A DNA stretch of 30,528 bases. Origin: a virus. Lineage: Duplodnaviria > Caudoviricetes. The stretch covers positions 1 through 30,528 of the IMG/VR virus record IMGVR_UViG_3300030372_004806, one strand, 5' to 3'. The position numbers and the translations under genes were made by a program. Below the pieces are notes generated by a model. It saw only the letters and a list, made by a program, of their open reading frames with translations, ran no database searches and had not been told where the DNA came from. Below are positions 8,570 through 27,416 of the stretch, piece after piece. How positions within the stretch are numbered: the first letter of the stretch is position 1; each line of letters starts with the position of its first letter.

Positions 8570-9463
8570 TCACTTCACCCGATGCTTGAGCACTGCGAGG
8601 TTCCCGCCATTGTACGCGAGGCTTGCCCCGTTGCTATATATGGGGTCGTGGACCATGTAGTTGGTGCCGCTGGCCTTGTAGGGGTGCATGACGCCCTTGA
8701 CGACCACACGAAGCCCGTAGACGACCAGGGCTGCAGGCTGGGTGCGCGGGTAGTACCAGGCACCCGAGATGCCGCGCCAACGTTGCGAAGATTCATTGCT
8801 TGCGTTTGGCAGGAACCCGTTGCTCGGAGCGTTCGCAAAGCGCAGGCCGGCAGGAACTACACTGCTCGACTCCATGTTTGTGAGAGGCTCGCCCCGATAG
8901 CTGCCGATGGTGGTCTTGAAGTCGCCCTGCCCGGTGACGGGCACAAAGTTGGCGCGAGCTGCGCTGGTAATGTCCCATTCCAGGTAGAAGACCCAGCAAC
9001 CGCCCCAGGTGTCTGCTTTTGTGTCTGGGTTCGGGGCGTTGGTGAACTGGTAGTAGCCGAGGCTCCCTGCCGCGTTCCAGTTGCTGCCCTGCGTTGCGTT
9101 GACGGACAGGTTCCAGTAGACGCGCAAGACCTCGCTGTTGGCAATGGTCAGCCCCGAGCCGAAGCTCATGATGCTTGCGTTGCCCGCACCGTCCTCGATG
9201 GGGTGAGGGTCGACCGGTACGGCTGCCGTCTGCCCTGCGACGGTGACTGAGCTCGCGTGCTTCCAGTCGTTCAGCCCGATGCTTTGCTCTTGCGCATGGC
9301 TGAGCAGCCAGTTGGTTGACGCGAACTGCGGCAGGTCATGAGCTGCGTCGCGGTGGTTGAACTGGTTTAGGTCCGTCTGGGTGTAGCTGGCAAAGCGGTC
9401 GTTGAGGCTTGCCGCGTCGAGCGTGTCACCGCCCTCAATGGGGCCGTCTGTGATGCGAGACAT
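8570..9463 (-). CDS. Tail-associated structural protein (297 aa; ATG 9463 preferred)
   Basis: GGGAGG SD and TAATG overlap with the upstream stop. N-terminal GDTLDAASLNDRF motif. Confidence 0.7.
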   Translation of the reverse strand: MSRITDGPIEGGDTLDAASLNDRFASYTQTDLNQFNHRDAAHDLPQFASTNWLLSHAQEQSIGLNDWKHASSVTVAGQTAAVPVDPHPIEDGAGNASIMSFGSGLTIANSEVLRVYWNLSVNATQGSNWNAAGSLGYYQFTNAPNPDTKADTWGGCWVFYLEWDITSAARANFVPVTGQGDFKTTIGSYRGEPLTNMESSSVVPAGLRFANAPSNGFLPNASNESSQRWRGISGAWYYPRTQPAALVVYGLRVVVKGVMHPYKASGTNYMVHDPIYSNGASLAYNGGNLAVLKHRVK

Positions 9464-10128
9464 TAGCGCCACCTCCCAATCGCCAGGTAGCGCATGCTGT
9501 AGAGGTGCGCCTGGGTGACCGGCATGCCGGCAGTTGTGGTCGTTGCGTCATCTTGCGACGGCCCGGTGATGCGCCACTGAAACCGGAGGGTGATGTCCCC
9601 CTGCGGCACCAGGCTCGACCCGATGACGCGGAAGGCCTCATGGCATCCGGGGCCGCGTTTTTCCGCAATGACAACACCGTTCGCAGTGATGCGCAGGTTG
9701 AGGTATCGCGGCGACAGTGGGTGGGGAATGTTGTTGCCCGCCGCCATGCTGCCGAAGATGTAGCCGTTGCCCGCCCACTCGATGTGGAGGTGGCCACCCT
9801 TGAAGCCGGCAAGAACAACCGCGGTGCCGCTCGATGCGTTCTGCCAGCCCCCAGGGTACACCCGAAAGGCTGCCGCGTCCCAGGTGTTGGAAGGGCCACT
9901 GCCGACATAGACAACCGAGTTTTGCTGCCCGCCTGTCGGGTGTGATGGGTCGATGTAGCCGCGCAGGATGCCGTAGTCTTTGAGTCTTGACTCGGTGACA
10001 TACGCCTCGGGCAGCTGGTCTCGGTCGAGCGTCGTGATGCTCGACTGCTGCGCGCGCAGCTCGTCGTTGACTGCGTCCGGGCTGAGGGTTCCGCCCGTTG
10101 TCGCGTCTCGCTGTGTCCACCGCTTCAT
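9463..10128 (-). CDS. Tail-associated structural protein (221 aa)
   Basis: ATGA overlap with the nozzle gene. N-terminal GGTLSPDAVNDEL motif. Confidence 0.7.
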   Translation of the reverse strand: MKRWTQRDATTGGTLSPDAVNDELRAQQSSITTLDRDQLPEAYVTESRLKDYGILRGYIDPSHPTGGQQNSVVYVGSGPSNTWDAAAFRVYPGGWQNASSGTAVVLAGFKGGHLHIEWAGNGYIFGSMAAGNNIPHPLSPRYLNLRITANGVVIAEKRGPGCHEAFRVIGSSLVPQGDITLRFQWRITGPSQDDATTTTAGMPVTQAHLYSMRYLAIGRWR

Positions 10129-12311
10129 GCGCGCCTTCCCATCACGACTTTTGTGCCCTTCGTGGTGAACTCATACTCATGGCCGACCAGGATGATGTCT
10201 GCCGTCGTTTCGAGCTCGAAGCAGAACCACGCCGCGGACATATGCGCGACACTGTAGCGGAGGGGAACCAGGCGCTCGGACTGGTAGGTCTCGGGCGCAC
10301 CGAGCACCGTCTTGTCGAGGGTCGGCAGCACAACCGCGTCGGGGGGTTGGGCGAGGTAGGTGCGCTCAAGCACGGGCACCAAGTCGAAGTCTTTGTAGTG
10401 CCGCATTGTGATGGTGCTGTCGCCGGTCGTCATGACCCAGATGGTGACGTAGGTGACCTGCTTCTGCAGCTGAGGGTCACCGGCAGACCACCAGGCAGAC
10501 CGGTACACGCTCGTCGGTGCGCCCTTGAAGGTCATCTGGTCGGCTACGATGCTGCTGCCGAGTGCTCGCTTGCCGCTCATGACGAAGAGACCGCGTTGCG
10601 AGTCGGTGCCCCCTGCCTCGGCCCCGGTGTGGTGTCCGAAGATGATGGTGCCGTCTGCCCGAGTCGCCAGGGCTCCGACTGGAAAGCCTCGTCGGGTGCT
10701 CCACGGGCTGAGGCGCTGCGAGTCGATGAGCGCAAGCCGGTCGAGGTGCAGAACGAGGCCGCGGTTCGGGCGGTCGTTGCCCTGAGCTGGGAAGAAGAGC
10801 TGGTACTGTCGCTCGGACGCACTGAACACCGCAACAGCCCGGGGCAGGCAGTCGGGCGTCATGCGCTGGATGAACTCGTCTTGGCCGAGGGTCAGGTTGA
10901 CCAGGTCCGCAATGGCGCCGCCCTCGAGGCCGCCCGTCAACCCGTACACACCATCCGTTCCCAGGAAGACGACCCCGAGGCCGGGCACCGCTGCGATTGT
11001 GTGGGGGCTCAGGCAGGTCACCGAGTTGCTGATTGTGGAGACCTGGAAGCCCTCCGCAAAGCTGCCGGTGACGACGTCGATGCCCCGTTCACGAAAGACG
11101 AGCAGGTTGGTGTAGGAGCCGAACAGGCCGGTGATGGCACCGCCCTCGCTCGACAGCTGCACAAAGTTCGCGGCCCCGAACTGCTCAATCAGCCCCGGCG
11201 CGCTGTAGTACAGGCTCAGTCCGTCATCGATGCCGCCGTCGAGCCACAGACAGCCCCCGAAGAGCCCACTGAAGCGCGCGCGGGGGGCAGGCAGGGGGCC
11301 GGTGGCAAGGTCGGGCTTGGGGCTGTTGAGGTTGCTACCGCGCACCGCGTCAAAGTACAGGTCTTCTGCGTTGTTGCGGACGATGTCGACGCGGTAGAGC
11401 GTGGTGTCTCCGGGCTGGTTGCTGTCTTCGCTGTAGTTTTTCGTGCGGTAGATGACGCGGGCAACGGTGCCCTCGGGGCCGATGGGCAGGCGCAGCCCGA
11501 CTGCGTGACGCATTCTGTCCGCGTTCTGTGCCAAGCCCCACGAGATCGATGCGGGCTCGCTGCTTGGCCCTTCGCTGCCGGTGTCGGTGATGAAGCTGAC
11601 GACGTAGCGATAGAGCGCCTCGTTGTCACCGTCTGCCGCCCCTGCCGCCTTGTTGCTGCCAAAGCCCAGCCCCCAGCGCCCGCCGTCGGCGATTGCGAGT
11701 GGATTGCTTGGGCACCACAAAGTCAAAGCGCTGCCGAGGATGGTCGGGTTGTAGGTTGGGGGGCTCGGCGCAGGCATCGGGTTGACGCGGAGAGGCTCGG
11801 GCGAGCTCGGCAGCGTCGAGAAGCCGAAAGCCCTGCAGCACCTGGCAATGGCTGCCGTCGACTCGGACGCGTTGCCGAGAGGCCACGGGTTCACGATGAC
11901 AGGGCGGTCGACCCCGTTGGTGATGATGGTGCCGTACGGGGTGTCGGTGAACCAGCTGCCGGCCTCGGTAGGCGTTGGGATGTGCCGGTCGGCCTGCAAG
12001 GTACGCAGGGTGGGAGCCCCAGCAGCGTCGTAGTAGAGCTGCAGCTTGCCGTCTGACTCGAAGAGTACTGCCTGCCGGGCACCGCCCGCGAGCTGCTGCG
12101 CAACATGCAGCGCATAGACCGGGCCAGTGGTGGCAAAGGGGTCGAAGTCGTTGCGGCCTGTTCTGTATTGCTCGTAGCCGACCCGAGACGACCAGCCGCC
12201 CGAGACCCGGTCAAGGGTCCAGTTCTGCAGCTTGCCTGCGTCCTGCGGGTTCTGGGGCAGCCTGGTGGCTACGCCGCCTGCCAGGGGCGTCTGGAACTGC
12301 GACTGGTTCAT
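10125..12311 (-). CDS. Tail nozzle / tail tubular protein B-like (head-stabilisation) protein (728 aa)
   Basis: N-terminal GGVATR...LQNW, beta-propeller-like segments (GGAITGLFGSYTNLLVFRE, CLSPHTIA, VVFLGTDGVYGL), follows the adaptor. Confidence 0.75.
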   Translation of the reverse strand: MNQSQFQTPLAGGVATRLPQNPQDAGKLQNWTLDRVSGGWSSRVGYEQYRTGRNDFDPFATTGPVYALHVAQQLAGGARQAVLFESDGKLQLYYDAAGAPTLRTLQADRHIPTPTEAGSWFTDTPYGTIITNGVDRPVIVNPWPLGNASESTAAIARCCRAFGFSTLPSSPEPLRVNPMPAPSPPTYNPTILGSALTLWCPSNPLAIADGGRWGLGFGSNKAAGAADGDNEALYRYVVSFITDTGSEGPSSEPASISWGLAQNADRMRHAVGLRLPIGPEGTVARVIYRTKNYSEDSNQPGDTTLYRVDIVRNNAEDLYFDAVRGSNLNSPKPDLATGPLPAPRARFSGLFGGCLWLDGGIDDGLSLYYSAPGLIEQFGAANFVQLSSEGGAITGLFGSYTNLLVFRERGIDVVTGSFAEGFQVSTISNSVTCLSPHTIAAVPGLGVVFLGTDGVYGLTGGLEGGAIADLVNLTLGQDEFIQRMTPDCLPRAVAVFSASERQYQLFFPAQGNDRPNRGLVLHLDRLALIDSQRLSPWSTRRGFPVGALATRADGTIIFGHHTGAEAGGTDSQRGLFVMSGKRALGSSIVADQMTFKGAPTSVYRSAWWSAGDPQLQKQVTYVTIWVMTTGDSTITMRHYKDFDLVPVLERTYLAQPPDAVVLPTLDKTVLGAPETYQSERLVPLRYSVAHMSAAWFCFELETTADIILVGHEYEFTTKGTKVVMGRRA

Positions 12312-13675
12312 GAGAACGTCAGGGGGCCGTAGGGGTTGCGGACGAAGCGGGTGCCCGCGGTGGGTGTGCCCTTGATGATTCGTCGGGGCACCTCCTTCAA
12401 GTAGCGCTGCTCCATGGCCTTGAAGAGCACGTCCTTCTTGCGCATGTAGACCGATGCGAGGGCAGGGTTGTCGACCTTGAGGGTGAGCGCTTCGAGGGCA
12501 GCATAGGCGACAATCTGCGCATAGGCGGCAGGCACGAGGGGTACGTCCTGGTCCTCCTGCATGCGAGGGGGCGCGACTACCATGCGGGTATCGATGTCCT
12601 GGTCACCGCTCGGGTGGGGGTAGAGCTCGACCGACCGATACAGGCCGGCCTGGTTGAAGCTGTAGCGGATGGCCTCGGACTGAAAGGCCTGCCCGCTCAG
12701 GTGGGTCAGGCTGAGGTTCGGCTTGAGGGTCACACCGCCCGTCGGGGCTACGGTGTCGACTCCGACTGCAAGGGCATCGACCGCGTCTGCATGGGTGATG
12801 CGCACCGGCGCCAGGATGTTGGCCTCAGCGCAGGTGAAGTAGTACCGACGATACAAGCCCGTCTGGTTGGGCAGGGTCTCGGGCGTCAGGGTCAGGGTCT
12901 GCGTGTTGGTGAGCGTGAAGCTCGCGACCTTGCTGAGGGCAGACTCGAAGCCCGACGACACATCCCGTCGGTAGGTCGGGTAGTTCTGCGCGTTGGGGCC
13001 GGCGACGTTGCACATGTAGACGTCAATGGTGCGCGCGCCTTGGGAGGCACCTGCTACCGTTGCAATCCCTCGGGGCACCTGGGGCGCTGGGATGCGGTCG
13101 CCCTCGCTGGGAAGGAAGGCCTCGATGGTGCCGAGCAGGTCAGGGTCAAGGTTGGCGTCTTCGCGCTCCCACTTGCTCAAGAACATCGCTTTGGCGGGTA
13201 TGCCCACCTTGGGGTCACTGACGTTCTGCAGGGTCATGCAGTCCGACGGTAGGCGCACCTCTCGCCGCTTGACGGTGACGGTGTAGGTGCCGCTTGCACC
13301 GATGAAGGGGCGGCGCAGGTACAGCCTGGTGGCGAGCTCGACCCAGGCAACGCGGTGCCGGTGGGAGTTGCCCGCGGAGTCCTCGAAGGTCAGCTCAGCC
13401 CGGGCGAGGTTGCTGCCCGGTGTGATGGGGTCTGCCGAGATAGGCAGCCCGGTGCCTGTCACTGTGGCGCTGCCGCTGGTGAAGGTCAGGCTGAGAGTCG
13501 TGTCCGTGTACACCTTGACGCGTCGCTCTTTGCTCGCGAAGGCCCAGGGCCGGTCTGTCAGGGTGCGCGTCTGCGCGTCGTTGAGCAGCGCGACGAGCTG
13601 CGCCCGGTAGGTGGTGTTGACCGGGTCGTAGTCCAGGAGGTTGCCGCAGAAGTCGAGTAGCTCGCCGAGATTCAA
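12308..13675 (-). CDS. Head-tail adaptor / tail tubular protein A-like with inserted beta domains (455 aa)
   Basis: MNLGELL...LLNDAQ...PWAF N-terminus, VRLPSDC, ELYPHPS and VPLVPAAYAQIVAYAA motifs typical of podoviral adaptors. GAGGTG SD with TTG start. Confidence 0.75.
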   Translation of the reverse strand: MNLGELLDFCGNLLDYDPVNTTYRAQLVALLNDAQTRTLTDRPWAFASKERRVKVYTDTTLSLTFTSGSATVTGTGLPISADPITPGSNLARAELTFEDSAGNSHRHRVAWVELATRLYLRRPFIGASGTYTVTVKRREVRLPSDCMTLQNVSDPKVGIPAKAMFLSKWEREDANLDPDLLGTIEAFLPSEGDRIPAPQVPRGIATVAGASQGARTIDVYMCNVAGPNAQNYPTYRRDVSSGFESALSKVASFTLTNTQTLTLTPETLPNQTGLYRRYYFTCAEANILAPVRITHADAVDALAVGVDTVAPTGGVTLKPNLSLTHLSGQAFQSEAIRYSFNQAGLYRSVELYPHPSGDQDIDTRMVVAPPRMQEDQDVPLVPAAYAQIVAYAALEALTLKVDNPALASVYMRKKDVLFKAMEQRYLKEVPRRIIKGTPTAGTRFVRNPYGPLTFS

Positions 13676-13689
13676 GGGTCACCTCATGG

Positions 13690-13729
13690 AAAGAAGGCCC
13701 CTTCGCCGTGGGAACAGAGCGAAGGGGCC
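13690..13729 (-). terminator. Intrinsic terminator after the capsid/decoration genes
   Basis: Perfect 11-bp stem GGCCCCTTCGC/GCGAAGGGGCC with a 12-nt loop, followed by TTCTTT on the minus strand. Confidence 0.7.
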
Positions 13730-13781
13730 GGAGCAGCGCCTGCCGAGGACACGTGGCAGGGCACCGCCCTGGGGGGGGGGC
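13690..13781 (-). ncRNA. Candidate 3'UTR-derived small RNA with three hairpins and C-rich loops
   Basis: GCCC-CCCCCCA-GGGC, then CCUGCC-ACGUGUCCUC-GGCAGG, then the terminator hairpin with loop UCUGUUCCCACG. Confidence 0.35.
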
Positions 13782-14249
13782 TCAGTACTTCTTGATGACG
13801 AAGACCGGTGCGATGTTGGTGGCATCGGCTGCGAGGGCGATACCGCACACGCTACCGGTCGTGGTGCCAGGCACCTCGATTTCGGCGCGGCCTGCGGTGC
13901 CGATGGGACCGACGAGGGCACTGCCCGCAACGGTTGCACCTGCCACCTGGGCCTCGTCGACGTAGCCGGCCACGACGATGCGGACCTGCTCACCGGCTGC
14001 AGCGACGGCAGCAAGGGCCACACCGAACGCAGCAGCGTTGCCCTTCGTGCCGACCCCAACGCATTCCTTGACGTAGAGCGCACGGTCTGCGCCGGTCTTG
14101 GATGCGTCGAGCTCAACCCAATCGCCCTTGGCAATGGCGCCGGAGCTGATGAAGGTTTCGACCTGGCGGCGGTTCATGGTGTCGGCACCGGCCCCGGTAG
14201 GGGAGGTGATGCCGTCGCCGAGGAACTGAATGAGAGTTGAGGTAGCCAT
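13782..14249 (-). CDS. Capsid decoration/cement protein (155 aa)
   Basis: Directly after MCP. Ala/Gly/Val-rich with GAIAKGDWV, FGVALAA and GIALAA motifs typical of cement proteins. Confidence 0.75.
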   Translation of the reverse strand: MATSTLIQFLGDGITSPTGAGADTMNRRQVETFISSGAIAKGDWVELDASKTGADRALYVKECVGVGTKGNAAAFGVALAAVAAAGEQVRIVVAGYVDEAQVAGATVAGSALVGPIGTAGRAEIEVPGTTTGSVCGIALAADATNIAPVFVIKKY

Positions 14250-14252
14250 GGC

Positions 14253-15266
14253 TCAGGCCTCCGCGTCGAGAAGGACACCGTGCGAAGCAAGGTGACCGGT
14301 GACAAGCTGCATGCGGCAGAAGACCATAGCGGCTTCGGTCGCAGTGCCGGGAACGGGCATCATATCGCCGACTTCGAAGAAGCCGTCGGTGTCCGCATAG
14401 AGCTGGAAGTTCGAGCTGCTCAGCACGTAGGCGCTGACAGGCTTCGCAGGGTTCTGGGCGGTGAAGCCGAGGTTGGGCTCAACATAGATGCGAGCACCGC
14501 GCCACATTGCAACCATGTCGCGGTCAAGGCTGTCGCGGCCGTCGGCGCTGACGTAGTTGACGAAGCTCTGCTGCTTGGCCTGGAAGGCTGCGAAGCACTT
14601 GGGCGACATGAGGATGATGTCAGGGAACTCGCCGGAGGGGTTCCGAATCTGACAGTCAATCATGAGCTGGTCGAGGTGGGACAACGCGAAGTTGGCGCCA
14701 CTGTCGAAGAAGTTGTTGAACCAGTTGTTGGCCCGGTAGGTGGTCTTGGACAAACCGCCAACGGTGTTCTGCTGGGTGTTCGTGGCGATGCCTTCGAGCC
14801 AACCAGTAGAAGCGGCAGTGGTGAGACCGTTGAGGGTCTGCAGCGTTGTCAGGGTGGAGCTGTTGCCCACGATGACCTGCTTGCTGACTTCCTTCTTCAG
14901 CCCCAGCATGACGTTCTTCATCTTCGATTCGAGGATGTTGACGACTGCGAGGTCACCCTTGTTCGCGGCCTTTTCTACGGCGTTCAGGATGATAGGCTGC
15001 GTAAAGTTCGAGTACTCGAACTTGGCAGTCTGGAAGGGGTCAGTCACTGCCATGTTCACCGGCTCGAAGCCGTTGGTCAGCTCGGTGATGCTGGAGTGGT
15101 CACCGAAGATGACAGGCTGCTCGACGCGGAGACCGCCCGAGACCTTGACCAGGTTGCCCGCGGATTCAATCGCGCGGAAGAGGGGATGGCTGAGGAAAGA
15201 GTTGTCAATCAGCTTGTCGCGCAGGAGCTGCAGCGTAGTGCTGATGACGCTTTGTGGTGCGGCCAA
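14253..15266 (-). CDS. Major capsid protein (337 aa, TTG start)
   Basis: Size and position after scaffold. DNSFLSHPLF, SGGLRVEQPV, GGLSKTTY..WFN and PDIIL motifs of an HK97-fold MCP family. GGGAGG SD. Confidence 0.88.
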   Translation of the reverse strand: MAAPQSVISTTLQLLRDKLIDNSFLSHPLFRAIESAGNLVKVSGGLRVEQPVIFGDHSSITELTNGFEPVNMAVTDPFQTAKFEYSNFTQPIILNAVEKAANKGDLAVVNILESKMKNVMLGLKKEVSKQVIVGNSSTLTTLQTLNGLTTAASTGWLEGIATNTQQNTVGGLSKTTYRANNWFNNFFDSGANFALSHLDQLMIDCQIRNPSGEFPDIILMSPKCFAAFQAKQQSFVNYVSADGRDSLDRDMVAMWRGARIYVEPNLGFTAQNPAKPVSAYVLSSSNFQLYADTDGFFEVGDMMPVPGTATEAAMVFCRMQLVTGHLASHGVLLDAEA

Positions 15267-15365
15267 GGTGGCCTCCCATAGCGGTTGGATGCTTGCGAAT
15301 TCGGGGCGTGCTGCGGTCGTCGCAGTGCCGAAGGCGCAAGGCTCCGCTACGGGGTGGCCTTACAT
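15267..15365 (-). promoter_or_regulatory. Structured 5' leader of the capsid gene, able to sequester the SD
   Basis: Nested stems 15275-84/15344-53, 15292-97/15335-40, 15300-04/15328-32 and 15311-15/15321-25, with a competing stem 15336-42/15357-63. Confidence 0.55.
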
Positions 15366-15370
15366 GGCTG

Positions 15371-15382
15371 CATTGTAGCACG
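15371..15382 (-). promoter_or_regulatory. Putative extended -10 promoter CGTGCTACAATG for the capsid operon
   Basis: TG-n-TACAAT immediately after the scaffold stop codon. Confidence 0.6.
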
Positions 15383-16201: not shown

Positions 16202-16207
16202 GTGTCC

Positions 16208-16684
16208 TCACGTGATGAGCTTGATGGGTTGCCCGACTTGGCGATACCAAGACGGGTTCCAGCCCGGGGCCTTGATGAAGGCGACCGGCCGGCCCAAGAA
16301 GGTGGTGCCAAGCTCAAGCACACTCACCCCTTGGATTCGATTGACGAGGAAGGTGCGCCAGCCCGGCAGCCCGCCTGTTGCTGTCGCTGACTGCGGGTCG
16401 ACGTACAGGTGCAGGTAGGTGCGGCCGTTCTTGCCTCGCCAGATGGCATGAGGGTTCCCGACCCGCTGCCCCAGGGCGCCTGGTGTGCCCTCGGGCTGCC
16501 ACTTGTCCTTGTAGAAGAAGGTCACCGGCTGCTTGCGCTCGATGGCCTGGGTCAGGTTTCCGAGAACGCCGCCCTCGTAGCTCCGGTAGTAGGCCTGCTT
16601 GCGCGTTGCAGGTATGACCGACTCGGGACGCTTGCCAAAGCCGAATATCTGCGCCAGGCGTAGCCTTATCGACTTAAAGGCCAT
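16208..16684 (-). CDS. Stand-alone WYL-domain protein (158 aa)
   Basis: Matches the WYL pattern: LTQAIERKQPVTFFY...QRVGNPHAI...TYLHLY...GWRTFLVNRIQGVSVL...PGWNP. No N-terminal HTH or C-terminal WCX domain evident. Confidence 0.75.
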   Translation of the reverse strand: MAFKSIRLRLAQIFGFGKRPESVIPATRKQAYYRSYEGGVLGNLTQAIERKQPVTFFYKDKWQPEGTPGALGQRVGNPHAIWRGKNGRTYLHLYVDPQSATATGGLPGWRTFLVNRIQGVSVLELGTTFLGRPVAFIKAPGWNPSWYRQVGQPIKLIT

Positions 16685-20448: not shown

Positions 20449-20470
20449 GAGTGTGTCCTCTCAAGACCTA

Positions 20471-20482
20471 CAGTCTACCACT
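20471..20482 (-). promoter_or_regulatory. Putative extended -10 promoter AGTGGTAGACTG upstream of terL
   Basis: TG-n-TAGACT overlapping the stop of the upstream gene and leaving room for the GAGAGGACAC RBS. Confidence 0.55.
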
Positions 20483-22396: not shown

Positions 22397-22638
22397 GGCC
22401 GCCCCTGACACCCTGGTGTGCCTTCGCAAAGGGCTGGCAGCGCACCTGCCGCAAGCCCTACCGAGACGCGGAGGTGATGCCCGTCGGCGACTGCTGGCGA
22501 TACGACGTCCGCACCATGACCGGACACATCGAGGTCATCGGTGTGCGCCCTACCCGCCTTGAAGCAATGGCGGCCGCAACCTCTCACCTGCTCCGCGTCA
22601 AGGCCGAGCAGGTGAGCAACGACTTGGGGGACATGTGA
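22393..22638 (+). CDS. Hypothetical protein (81 aa)
   Basis: AGGTG SD, 4-nt overlaps with both neighbours. Confidence 0.65.
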   Translation: MRPPLTPWCAFAKGWQRTCRKPYRDAEVMPVGDCWRYDVRTMTGHIEVIGVRPTRLEAMAAATSHLLRVKAEQVSNDLGDM

Positions 22639-25395: not shown

Positions 25396-25405
25396 GAGGA
25401 CACCC

Positions 25406-26107: not shown

Positions 26108-26574
26108 TGCTGTACATCGGCATCGACCCTGGCCCGGAGTTCTGCGGCCTGGTGGTGTACTATCTTCAAGAAGAATGCTCGGGTGTCGTGATTGCTGCCC
26201 GAAGCAACGCGACGGTTCAGGAGGTGCGCGCCGTCATCGACGAGCTTGCAGCAGACGGCCCGACGGTTGCCATCGAGCACACTCACCCCGGCCCGCCGTC
26301 CTGGTCGGTCATCAGGACAACGGTCGTCGTCGGCCGACTGCTTGAGTACTCCGAGCTTCGGGGACTGCAGACGGTCGCCGTACACCGCAAGGACGTCAAG
26401 GCCTACCTCGGCAAGGCAGACAGCCACATACGGCGCAGCCTCATCGAGCAGCATGGCCTTGACCCTGACACCTTCCACTACACCAAAGAGACGGCGCTCA
26501 AGGGCGTCACCGGACACGCATGGCAGGCCCTGGCGGCTGTCATCACACTGCACGACGAGAGGACAACACAATGA
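26107..26574 (+). CDS. RuvC-like Holliday junction resolvase (155 aa; ATG 26107)
   Basis: MLYIGIDPG, VAIE, RKDVKAYLG and C-terminal HAWQALAAV. TGATG overlap with erf. Confidence 0.75.
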   Translation: MLYIGIDPGPEFCGLVVYYLQEECSGVVIAARSNATVQEVRAVIDELAADGPTVAIEHTHPGPPSWSVIRTTVVVGRLLEYSELRGLQTVAVHRKDVKAYLGKADSHIRRSLIEQHGLDPDTFHYTKETALKGVTGHAWQALAAVITLHDERTTQ

Positions 26575-27407
26575 ACATGCCCACCCCCGAGGATACGCTC
26601 ACCTGGTCGGACGCGGAGTACTTCGCCTTCGAGGCGATGAACGCCACCAGCTTGAAGCAGCTTCTGAAGAGCCCGCGGCAGTATCAGCACCACCTGCGCA
26701 ACCCCAAGCCGAAGACCATCAACATGGTGCTCGGCAGTGCAATCCACTGCATGACCTTCGAGCCCATGCACTTCGATGCTCGCTATGCGGTGTGGGATGG
26801 CGAGAGCCGGCGCACGAAGGCCTACCGAGAGTGGAAGGAGCGCCAGGAGATGGCAGGCCGCACCTGCATCACTGTTAGCGAGCACGAGACGGCCCGACGG
26901 GTTGCCGAGGCCGCAAGCCGTCACCCCTTGATGCTCGACCTGCTTGGGCACCCTGGCACCCAGCTCGAGCGGGTTGTTGTGTGGCAAGGCCTGTTCGGGC
27001 TGTGCAAGGCAAAGATTGACCTGTTGCACTGCTCCGAAGAGCACGGCCTCATTGTCTGCGACCTGAAGACGACCGGCACCGAGCTCGACGAGCACACCCT
27101 GCAACAGACCATGGGGCGGTATGCCGTCCACCTGCAGCTATGGCACTACTTCGAAGCCGCCTGCGCCTACTACGGGCGGACCTCCGAGGTGACCTTTGAC
27201 TCTCGGCTGATGGCCCTGTACGCGCAGACCTCAGCACCCTACGATACGACTGCCTGCGAGCTCGGCCCTGAGACCGTGGCACAAGTCCGCGAGCTCTATG
27301 CCGACCTTGCCCAGGTGTACAGCAACTGTACCGAGCTGGGCCGATGGCCCGGTCAACCTGCAGAGCGCCTCATTGAGGTGCCTGCGTACTACACTCAACT
27401 GAAGTGA
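26571..27407 (+). CDS. PD-(D/E)XK exonuclease, RecE/exonuclease VIII-like (278 aa; ATG 26571)
   Basis: NATSLKQLLKSP, LGSAIHC..FEP, KAKIDLL, VCDLKTT and HLQLWHY motifs. Confidence 0.88.
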   Translation: MNMPTPEDTLTWSDAEYFAFEAMNATSLKQLLKSPRQYQHHLRNPKPKTINMVLGSAIHCMTFEPMHFDARYAVWDGESRRTKAYREWKERQEMAGRTCITVSEHETARRVAEAASRHPLMLDLLGHPGTQLERVVVWQGLFGLCKAKIDLLHCSEEHGLIVCDLKTTGTELDEHTLQQTMGRYAVHLQLWHYFEAACAYYGRTSEVTFDSRLMALYAQTSAPYDTTACELGPETVAQVRELYADLAQVYSNCTELGRWPGQPAERLIEVPAYYTQLK

Positions 27408-27416
27408 GGACACACG

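Follow-up and report, generated by a model that had tools for sequence, protein, structure and literature searches.

A capsid mRNA 3' end with a hairpin loop complementary to the phage's own start tags: a candidate trans-acting repressor

We report that the 3' untranslated region (UTR) behind the capsid genes of a phage displays, in the open loop of a hairpin, the complement of a sequence tag at the ribosome-binding sites (RBSs) of its assembly and recombination genes, and that loop and tag change together among its relatives. Structure, complementarity, target ranking and co-variation are established by computation, and the comparison of sequences strongly supports a real, selected RNA element that would base-pair to the phage's own start tags. 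We consider it likely that the 3' end of the capsid-decoration mRNA pairs in trans with the tagged RBSs and represses their translation. On a broader reading we are evenly divided: the phage's most abundant structural mRNA may be the master repressor of a tagged regulon, in which RBS addresses and one antisense key are re-coded jointly in each lineage.

The window (the whole 30,528-base stretch of DNA analyzed) is a complete phage genome with a GC content of 63.8% and a 99-nt terminal repeat. The minus strand carries the structural genes in the order large terminase subunit (terL), portal, a 168-aa gene, a WYL-domain gene, scaffold, major capsid, a 155-aa gene and an SU10-type adaptor, while the plus strand carries genes for a primase-helicase, erf, a resolvase, exonuclease VIII and ssb. 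PHROG matches were obtained for scaffold (weak, E 2e-4), terL, erf, exonuclease VIII and ssb; an HTH-like gene has match scores under the Pfam cut-off. An earlier note on this DNA had named the 155-aa product a decoration protein: its position behind the capsid gene agrees with this, but it has no PHROG or Pfam match, and we keep the name as a positional label. Neither a host nor a close cultured relative was found by blastn, which gave no match to cultured relatives, or by capsid and terL comparisons: tblastn of the capsid protein against cultured phages returned Myxococcus phage Mx9 alone (26% identity over one third of the protein), and terL reached at most 27% identity among the 10 matches listed. 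Four loci lie inside prokaryote genomes. The genes around the element are as follows.

12308..13675, minus strand: head-tail adaptor gene, 3' of the element (Pfam SU10_adaptor, E 1.2e-6)
13782..14249, minus strand: putative decoration gene of 155 aa, with the element in its 3' UTR; its position behind the capsid gene is conserved
14253..15266, minus strand: major capsid protein gene (phrog_9953, E 2e-18); it lacks a tag and served as control target
16208-16684, minus strand: gene for a stand-alone WYL-domain protein (Pfam E 1.6e-4), flanked by portal and scaffold; the scaffold tag overlaps with its stop codon

On the minus strand, the 3' UTR behind the putative decoration gene forms two hairpins, listed here from the stop codon onwards.

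13770..13781, minus strand: C-run after the stop codon, single-stranded (5-11% paired as a hairpin); in most close relatives
13731..13769, minus strand: hairpin 1, whose 14-bp stem displays the seed (folding; compensatory changes in relatives)
13745..13754, minus strand: seed loop ACGUGUCCUC, antisense to the start tag GAGGACAC; open in the minimum free energy (MFE) structure and the ensemble
13696..13729, minus strand: GC-rich hairpin 2, which probably serves the capsid-decoration mRNA as a leaky intrinsic terminator (folding; G-U versus A-C 24:0)
13690..13695, minus strand: short U-rich tract UUCUUU after hairpin 2 (sequence; a pyrimidine tract in relatives)

The element folds with a z-score of -3.54, none of 200 shuffles being as stable, and the plus strand folds nearly as well (z -3.49). 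Each base of the seed loop has an unpaired probability of 0.81-1.0 in the ensemble, and the proposal that the middle loop is the exact complement of a shared RBS motif stands, ACGUGUCCUC being an open loop facing GAGGACAC. The description of three hairpins with C-rich loops had to be revised to two: the GGGC arm assigned to a CCCCCCA hairpin is the outer stem of the seed hairpin and pairs upstream with a probability of only 5-11%, so that the C-run is single-stranded. The third C-rich loop, UCUGUUCCCACG, is partly paired with at most 4 contiguous open bases, and joint action of three loops finds no backing, the conserved seed being the middle loop only. A hairpin with a weak U tract is present at the 3' end on the mRNA strand; hairpin 2 is absent from the output of a consensus terminator scan. 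The adaptor gene is presumably expressed via read-through past the hairpins. Phage T7 has a leaky terminator, T-phi, between its capsid gene and its adaptor and tail-tube genes, the position that the probable terminator takes here between capsid and adaptor genes; we know of no antisense seed hairpin for T-phi. Rfam gave no match at the gathering score for the window and three distant loci, and an sX2 match 1.9 kb from the element is at chance level.

GAGGACAC occurs exactly five times in the genome (13745+, 16202-, 20453-, 25396+ and 27406+), against a chance expectation of 1.57 copies on average, with at least five in 3 of 100 shuffles. This exhaustive count confirms the positions given in the earlier note and its finding of no further perfect copy; the 7-nt match claimed at the exonuclease gene is also present. 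The tags sit 0-8 nt before an ATG, one further copy being reversed and intergenic; part of the tag is the Shine-Dalgarno (SD) core, and it often also overlaps the TGA stop of the upstream gene.

16202..16209, minus strand: scaffold start tag, overlapping the stop codon of the upstream WYL gene
20453..20460, minus strand: terL start tag; at least 7 nt in 4/8 genomes having the gene
22627..22636, plus strand: wobble match GGGGACATGT over the start of the HTH-like gene; strongest predicted duplex in the window, not conserved
25396..25403, plus strand: start tag of erf (ssDNA-annealing protein); 8-9 nt in 10/10 genomes
26559..26565, plus strand: exonuclease VIII start tag, 7 nt; at least 7 nt in 8/10 genomes
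27406..27413, plus strand: ssb start tag; at least 8 nt in 9/10 genomes

In a ranking of 27 hand-curated gene starts by a score that takes in the energy needed to unfold the element, ranks 1-6 go to the HTH-like, erf, ssb, terL, scaffold and exonuclease genes, all via the seed loop; the six targets named beforehand do outrank the other genes. The suggested HTH target stands as far as the match itself, which ranks first, but not as a conserved target: the match is absent in G001/L002, although the capsid protein of G001 is 96% identical to that of the window. Since erf, exonuclease and ssb lie on the opposite strand, any pairing with them would be in trans. A blind scan of all hairpins, which is noisy because of spurious ORFs, places the element second of 138 in the window and first, tied first or second in 9 of the 12 genomes that hold it; it falls below the top three in G003, G005 and G027. 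Genomes without the element showed no convincing replacement loop elsewhere among their top three hairpins.

Among close relatives the loop is constant while the stems vary. Searching viral and metagenome contigs with the capsid protein (best 80 of 167 and best 80 of 148 matches) yielded, among the matches listed, 54 loci with a capsid identity of at least 87% and a full UTR, some being the same contig in two collections. GUCCUC (GTCCTC in DNA) is found in 54/54 of these loci and, among the matches listed, is the sole 6-mer common to all 31 distinct elements. In a sequence-only alignment of 21 of the close elements, with relatedness not removed, 11 of 15 consensus pairs have changes on both sides and 93.9% of cells pair, as against 41-62% with slid partners; the outer helix of hairpin 1 is 99% paired over the 21 sequences, with 6/7 pairs changed on both sides. 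A covariance model (R1) run on 64 sources returned 31 matches (one window copy, 29 further close-clade loci and one marginal match) and none in distant lineages. The hairpin 2 loops of L001, L003 and L004 hold a degenerate second copy of the seed (GUGUC..), where other close relatives have CUGCUC.

Relatives also retain the complementarity of loop and RBS. All 25 distinct close-relative loci match their own loop at the scaffold start by 8-15 nt, and across eight close genomes (window included) and two distant ones, with a probe that includes a few stem bases, a match of 7 nt or more to the loop of the same genome is found for terL, scaffold, erf, exonuclease and ssb in 40/47 cases, against 4/158 for other genes. 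The seven misses are terL of G005, G006, G024 and G025, the exonuclease of G024 and G025, and ssb of G006. The loop matches the capsid start by 3-5 nt and the decoration start by 4 nt (10/10 genomes). Newly placed genes appear to carry the tag as well: tagged starts lie at G002:25713 (plus strand) and G005:796 (minus strand), in genes whose motifs resemble those of methyltransferases, and the tag was not seen at terL in those genomes. Loop and tag differ in concert even at this range, so that the checks which the earlier note had set for refuting its proposal (loss of complementarity in relatives, no co-variation, no higher rank of the targets) came out in its favor: the window's subgroup combines loop GUGUCCUC with tag TGAGGACAC (up to 11 perfect pairs), other close relatives loop UGUCCUCUC with tag GAGAGGACA (up to 15), and own pairs average 8.63 nt against 7.66 nt when swapped (0/20000 permutations; 19 combinations, with kinship not controlled).

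Searches reaching further (35 of 35 and best 80 of 301 matches, with capsids at 31-45% identity) uncovered tags of other sequence, GGAGCACA, CAAGGACC, GGAGCUAC and ACAGGAGA, with loops altered to match. In G024/G025 (capsid identity 42%), the tag before scaffold, erf and ssb, and before as many as three other genes, is GGAGCACA. A hairpin behind the decoration gene holds AUUGUGCUCC inside a 20-nt loop, and the 5' part of this loop also pairs across the initial codons of erf and of one more gene. Loop GGUCCUUG goes with tag CAAGGACC in L296, UUGCUCC with GGAGCAA in L301, UCUCCUGU with ACAGGAGA in L394 and CUCCCUGUA with TACAGGGAG in L396. In G027 the loop pairs over 13 bp with ssb, and there are matches to erf and to an exonuclease homologue, but half of the seed is buried and the scaffold start is poorly matched. 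Low-GC lineages have plain terminators at the position of the element, and intermediate clades share tags (GGAAGTC, GGGAGTC, GGAGAC) mostly without a matching loop. Large pyrimidine-rich loops (e.g., CGUCCUC) occupy the same place in L373, L374, L364, L295 and L300; with the scaffold match absent or weak and early genes absent, these loci were scored as misses or could not enter the test. About 430 extra nt, apparently with a small ORF, lie between scaffold and capsid in G024/G025 (L293, that is G025, 9432-9858).

A formal test supports co-variation beyond the close clade. From 276 loci with a capsid match among the matches listed, 205 had a scaffold start, a UTR and a full capsid gene, and 139 remained after deduplication, falling into 41 capsid clusters at 85% identity; scaffold starts were picked by SD score, with homology used to correct five of them in the close clade, and the L086 UTR was delimited manually. 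The score adds up, over the clusters, the fraction of loci having an accessible match of 7 nt or more with the scaffold start of the same locus; own-genome matches reach 8.17 cluster-equivalents of 41 versus 1.31 when permuted (0/5000). The capsid-start control is at chance (0.87 versus 0.82), and the signal persists with the window's clade removed (7.17 versus 1.28; 0/10000) and likewise among GC-rich clusters. The element is patchy, not universal: a match of at least 8 nt is found in only 7/41 clusters and in none of the other 34/41, and on a midpoint-rooted capsid tree of 91 rows the 11 rows with at least 8 nt require 7 changes.

We propose a mechanism in which transcription, intracellular pairing, repression, timing and any requirement for a chaperone are inferred. 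The capsid-decoration mRNA would end in the seed hairpin followed by the terminator hairpin, and the open loop would nucleate pairing of 8-15 bp with the lineage-specific tag that extends the SD of scaffold, erf, exonuclease, ssb, often terL and some small genes; untagged starts would form merely 3-6 pairs with the loop. By covering the SD and sometimes the start codon, the duplex would compete with the 30S subunit and lower initiation. As capsid mRNA accumulates, scaffold and terminase would be capped, and synthesis of recombination proteins and SSB would be wound down during assembly, the actor being either the tail of the capsid mRNA or a released RNA of about 90 nt. Several points count against this: the element is patchy, the terL tag is missing in 4/8 genomes, G027 has a half-buried seed and a poorly matched scaffold start, and the tag shares bases with the SD core and often with an upstream stop. 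It would also be a far from obvious arrangement for a capsid mRNA to repress the scaffold and terminase of its own phage.

Signaling could also run in the opposite direction, the tagged mRNAs binding the loop and thereby altering termination, read-through into the adaptor gene or the stability of the capsid mRNA. Such a role would suit L086, L296, L301, L394 and L396, where the seed lies within the terminator hairpin itself, and L010/L016/L103, where a 15-nt match extends into the stem. We consider it unlikely, because in the window's clade the seed has a hairpin of its own and pairing leaves the terminator untouched, and because a mere trigger would have no need of a tag that invariably covers the SD.

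Repression by the capsid mRNA further presupposes that the structure acts on the mRNA strand. In the close-relative sequences, stems of hairpin 2 defined by Watson-Crick pairs contain G-U rather than A-C mismatches by 24:0, and 20 other hand-picked loci by 20:3, an excess that points to the mRNA strand as the one that folds. Taken by itself, hairpin 1 gives no indication of strand (8 G-U, 6 A-C) and is more stable on the mRNA strand in only 8/18; the bases flanking duplexes show no wobble excess (20 G-U and 28 A-C of 82). These null results, the equally good folding of the plus strand and the WYL-domain gene adjoining the scaffold tag would fit a protein-binding site, either a DNA operator or a decoy RNA from the other strand with GAGGAC in its loop, as CsrB is an RNA decoy that displays the CsrA motif in a loop; the complementarity would then be incidental. 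We regard this as decidedly improbable, given that the adjoining terminator is selected on the mRNA strand, as are the 20 other loci, that same-sense matches in 3' UTR loops are at background level (1.05), and that protein specificity would have to change at every change of tag. Moreover, the WYL gene has no tblastn match in G024/G025, which carry the element, and the other strand has no conserved ORF after the motif. Two candidates were tried and rejected: an antisense gene behind the motif, where ORF lengths range from 3 to 503 codons without conservation, and the WYL protein as partner, whose fold is confirmed (structure model with pLDDT 79; best Foldseek matches CapW, BrxR and PafBC) but for which no link to the element was found.

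The scaffold is the most constant partner of the loop and has the longest perfect matches (15 nt), as would be expected if the loop acted in cis alone, within one long late transcript that includes the scaffold start, and if a strong RBS were all that the other genes have in common. A promoter-like element between scaffold and capsid speaks against this.

15372..15380, minus strand: extended -10-like element TGCTACAAT between the scaffold and capsid genes, seen by eye at a fixed place in many close relatives

TGCTACAAT lies just after the scaffold stop, and outgroups have TTGAC-N17-TA..T-like elements there by eye; a strict promoter scan does not list it. The sequence suggests that the capsid-decoration mRNA probably has its own promoter, in which case the scaffold, too, would mainly be a trans target. 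The loop of G027 matches ssb, exonuclease and erf yet not the scaffold, and in G024/G025 the erf and ssb tags have changed along with the loop, all of which leaves action in cis alone, in our judgment, with slender prospects. Least probable, and in our view barely credible, is a neutral relic or chance event, an inverted copy of a gene start within a hairpin: the 5' edge of the loop does read as an anti-start codon in 20/31 elements and the G025 loop mirrors an RBS and first codons, as expected of an inverted duplication, but the loop does not vary whereas the stems do, and on separate branches of the capsid tree it has followed different tags. Such a duplication may explain origin, not maintenance.

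Repression by loop-borne complementarity has parallels among known RNAs. In S. aureus, as described in PMC2790875, RsaE and RNAIII use an unpaired pyrimidine-rich motif, displayed by RNAIII in hairpin loops, to pair with the SDs of several mRNAs and block initiation, the pairing being Hfq-independent in that species. The phage element likewise has an unpaired seed that is predicted to be complementary to the SD regions of several mRNAs, but these chromosomal RNAs carry a generic UCCC, whereas the phage has a GUCCUC core with a private extension that co-varies with the phage tag and sits in the tail of a structural mRNA. A conserved unpaired UCCC motif of the RsaE type was not found here, the UUCC of hairpin 2 not being conserved. 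The c4 RNA of P1/P7 (reviewed in PMC12197685) likely has loop-borne complementary sequences, binds around the RBS and is tied to specificity between related phages. A loop displaying predicted complementarity to a phage RBS region is common to both, but c4 is a dedicated immunity RNA directed at an antirepressor mRNA, whereas at least five assembly and recombination genes are addressed here; the element has no Rfam match to the C4 structure, and scaffold, terL, erf, exonuclease and ssb, not an antirepressor, are its targets. In icaR of S. aureus, an anti-SD motif in the 3' UTR pairs with the SD of its own mRNA and blocks initiation (PMC3868564). The phage motif is also an anti-SD motif in a 3' UTR, but the capsid and decoration starts are unmatched and three of the targets lie on the other strand. 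Titles and abstract openings in the literature surveyed mention no phage structural-mRNA tail that targets a shared RBS tag; Table S1 of PMC12197685 lists 38 phage sRNAs with no assigned function.

Tags of this kind have been described in mycobacteriophages. The start-associated sequence (SAS) of cluster K, as described in PMC3203893 and PMC11373665, is a repeated asymmetric 13-bp tag over the RBS, conserved beyond 16S pairing, present in 11-19 copies at non-structural genes only, with one copy in opposite orientation and a function stated as unknown; those descriptions mention no antisense partner. The window tag is likewise an asymmetric repeat with an SD core before starts and one reversed copy, but it is shorter, differs in sequence and also marks scaffold and terL. 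Adephagia has 16 forward SAS and one reverse. The reverse copy falls in the intergenic space of genes 92 and 93, where a hairpin of 19 bp, on the same strand as both neighbors, holds it in a 10-nt loop.

L421:33662-33714 (about 58,660-58,715 of the record): hairpin of Adephagia with the reversed SAS

The reversed SAS lies in an open hairpin loop in four of the eight phages examined (Adephagia, Anaya, Amelie and Efra2); an anti-SAS loop was not found in the homologous stretch of Ekdilam and Keshu or in the right halves of Pixie and TM4. By blastn, the anti-SAS stretch of Adephagia occurs in 137 mycobacteriophage records, and cluster K could serve as a cultured test system for the principle of loop and tag.

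If the broader reading holds, the element would constitute a protein-free switch from replication to assembly, possibly insulating co-infecting relatives from each other, and the SAS tags of cluster K would find their explanation in the same principle, offering a testable answer on the role of start-associated tags, whose function has been open since 2011. In the literature examined, phage base-pairing RNAs are mostly dedicated sRNAs of temperate phages, directed at immunity or at genes of the host. If a capsid mRNA tail addresses scaffold, terminase and recombination genes of the same phage through a co-evolving tag, virion assembly would be timed and dosed in a new manner. The natural orthogonal pairs of loop and tag might be used for translational control.

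Two further features lie upstream of the structural genes concerned. An extended -10-like sequence, TGGTAGACT (20472-20480, minus strand), occurs just upstream of the terL tag, with similar ones in relatives by eye. In the folded 5' leader of the capsid gene (15264-15365, minus strand), the capsid SD (GGGAGG) is buried within a long stem; it is possible that this stem acts as a second translational switch, the capsid SD being paired in the MFE structure of 61/66 leaders, a count made without a shuffled control, and the arms of the stem co-changing in close relatives by eye.
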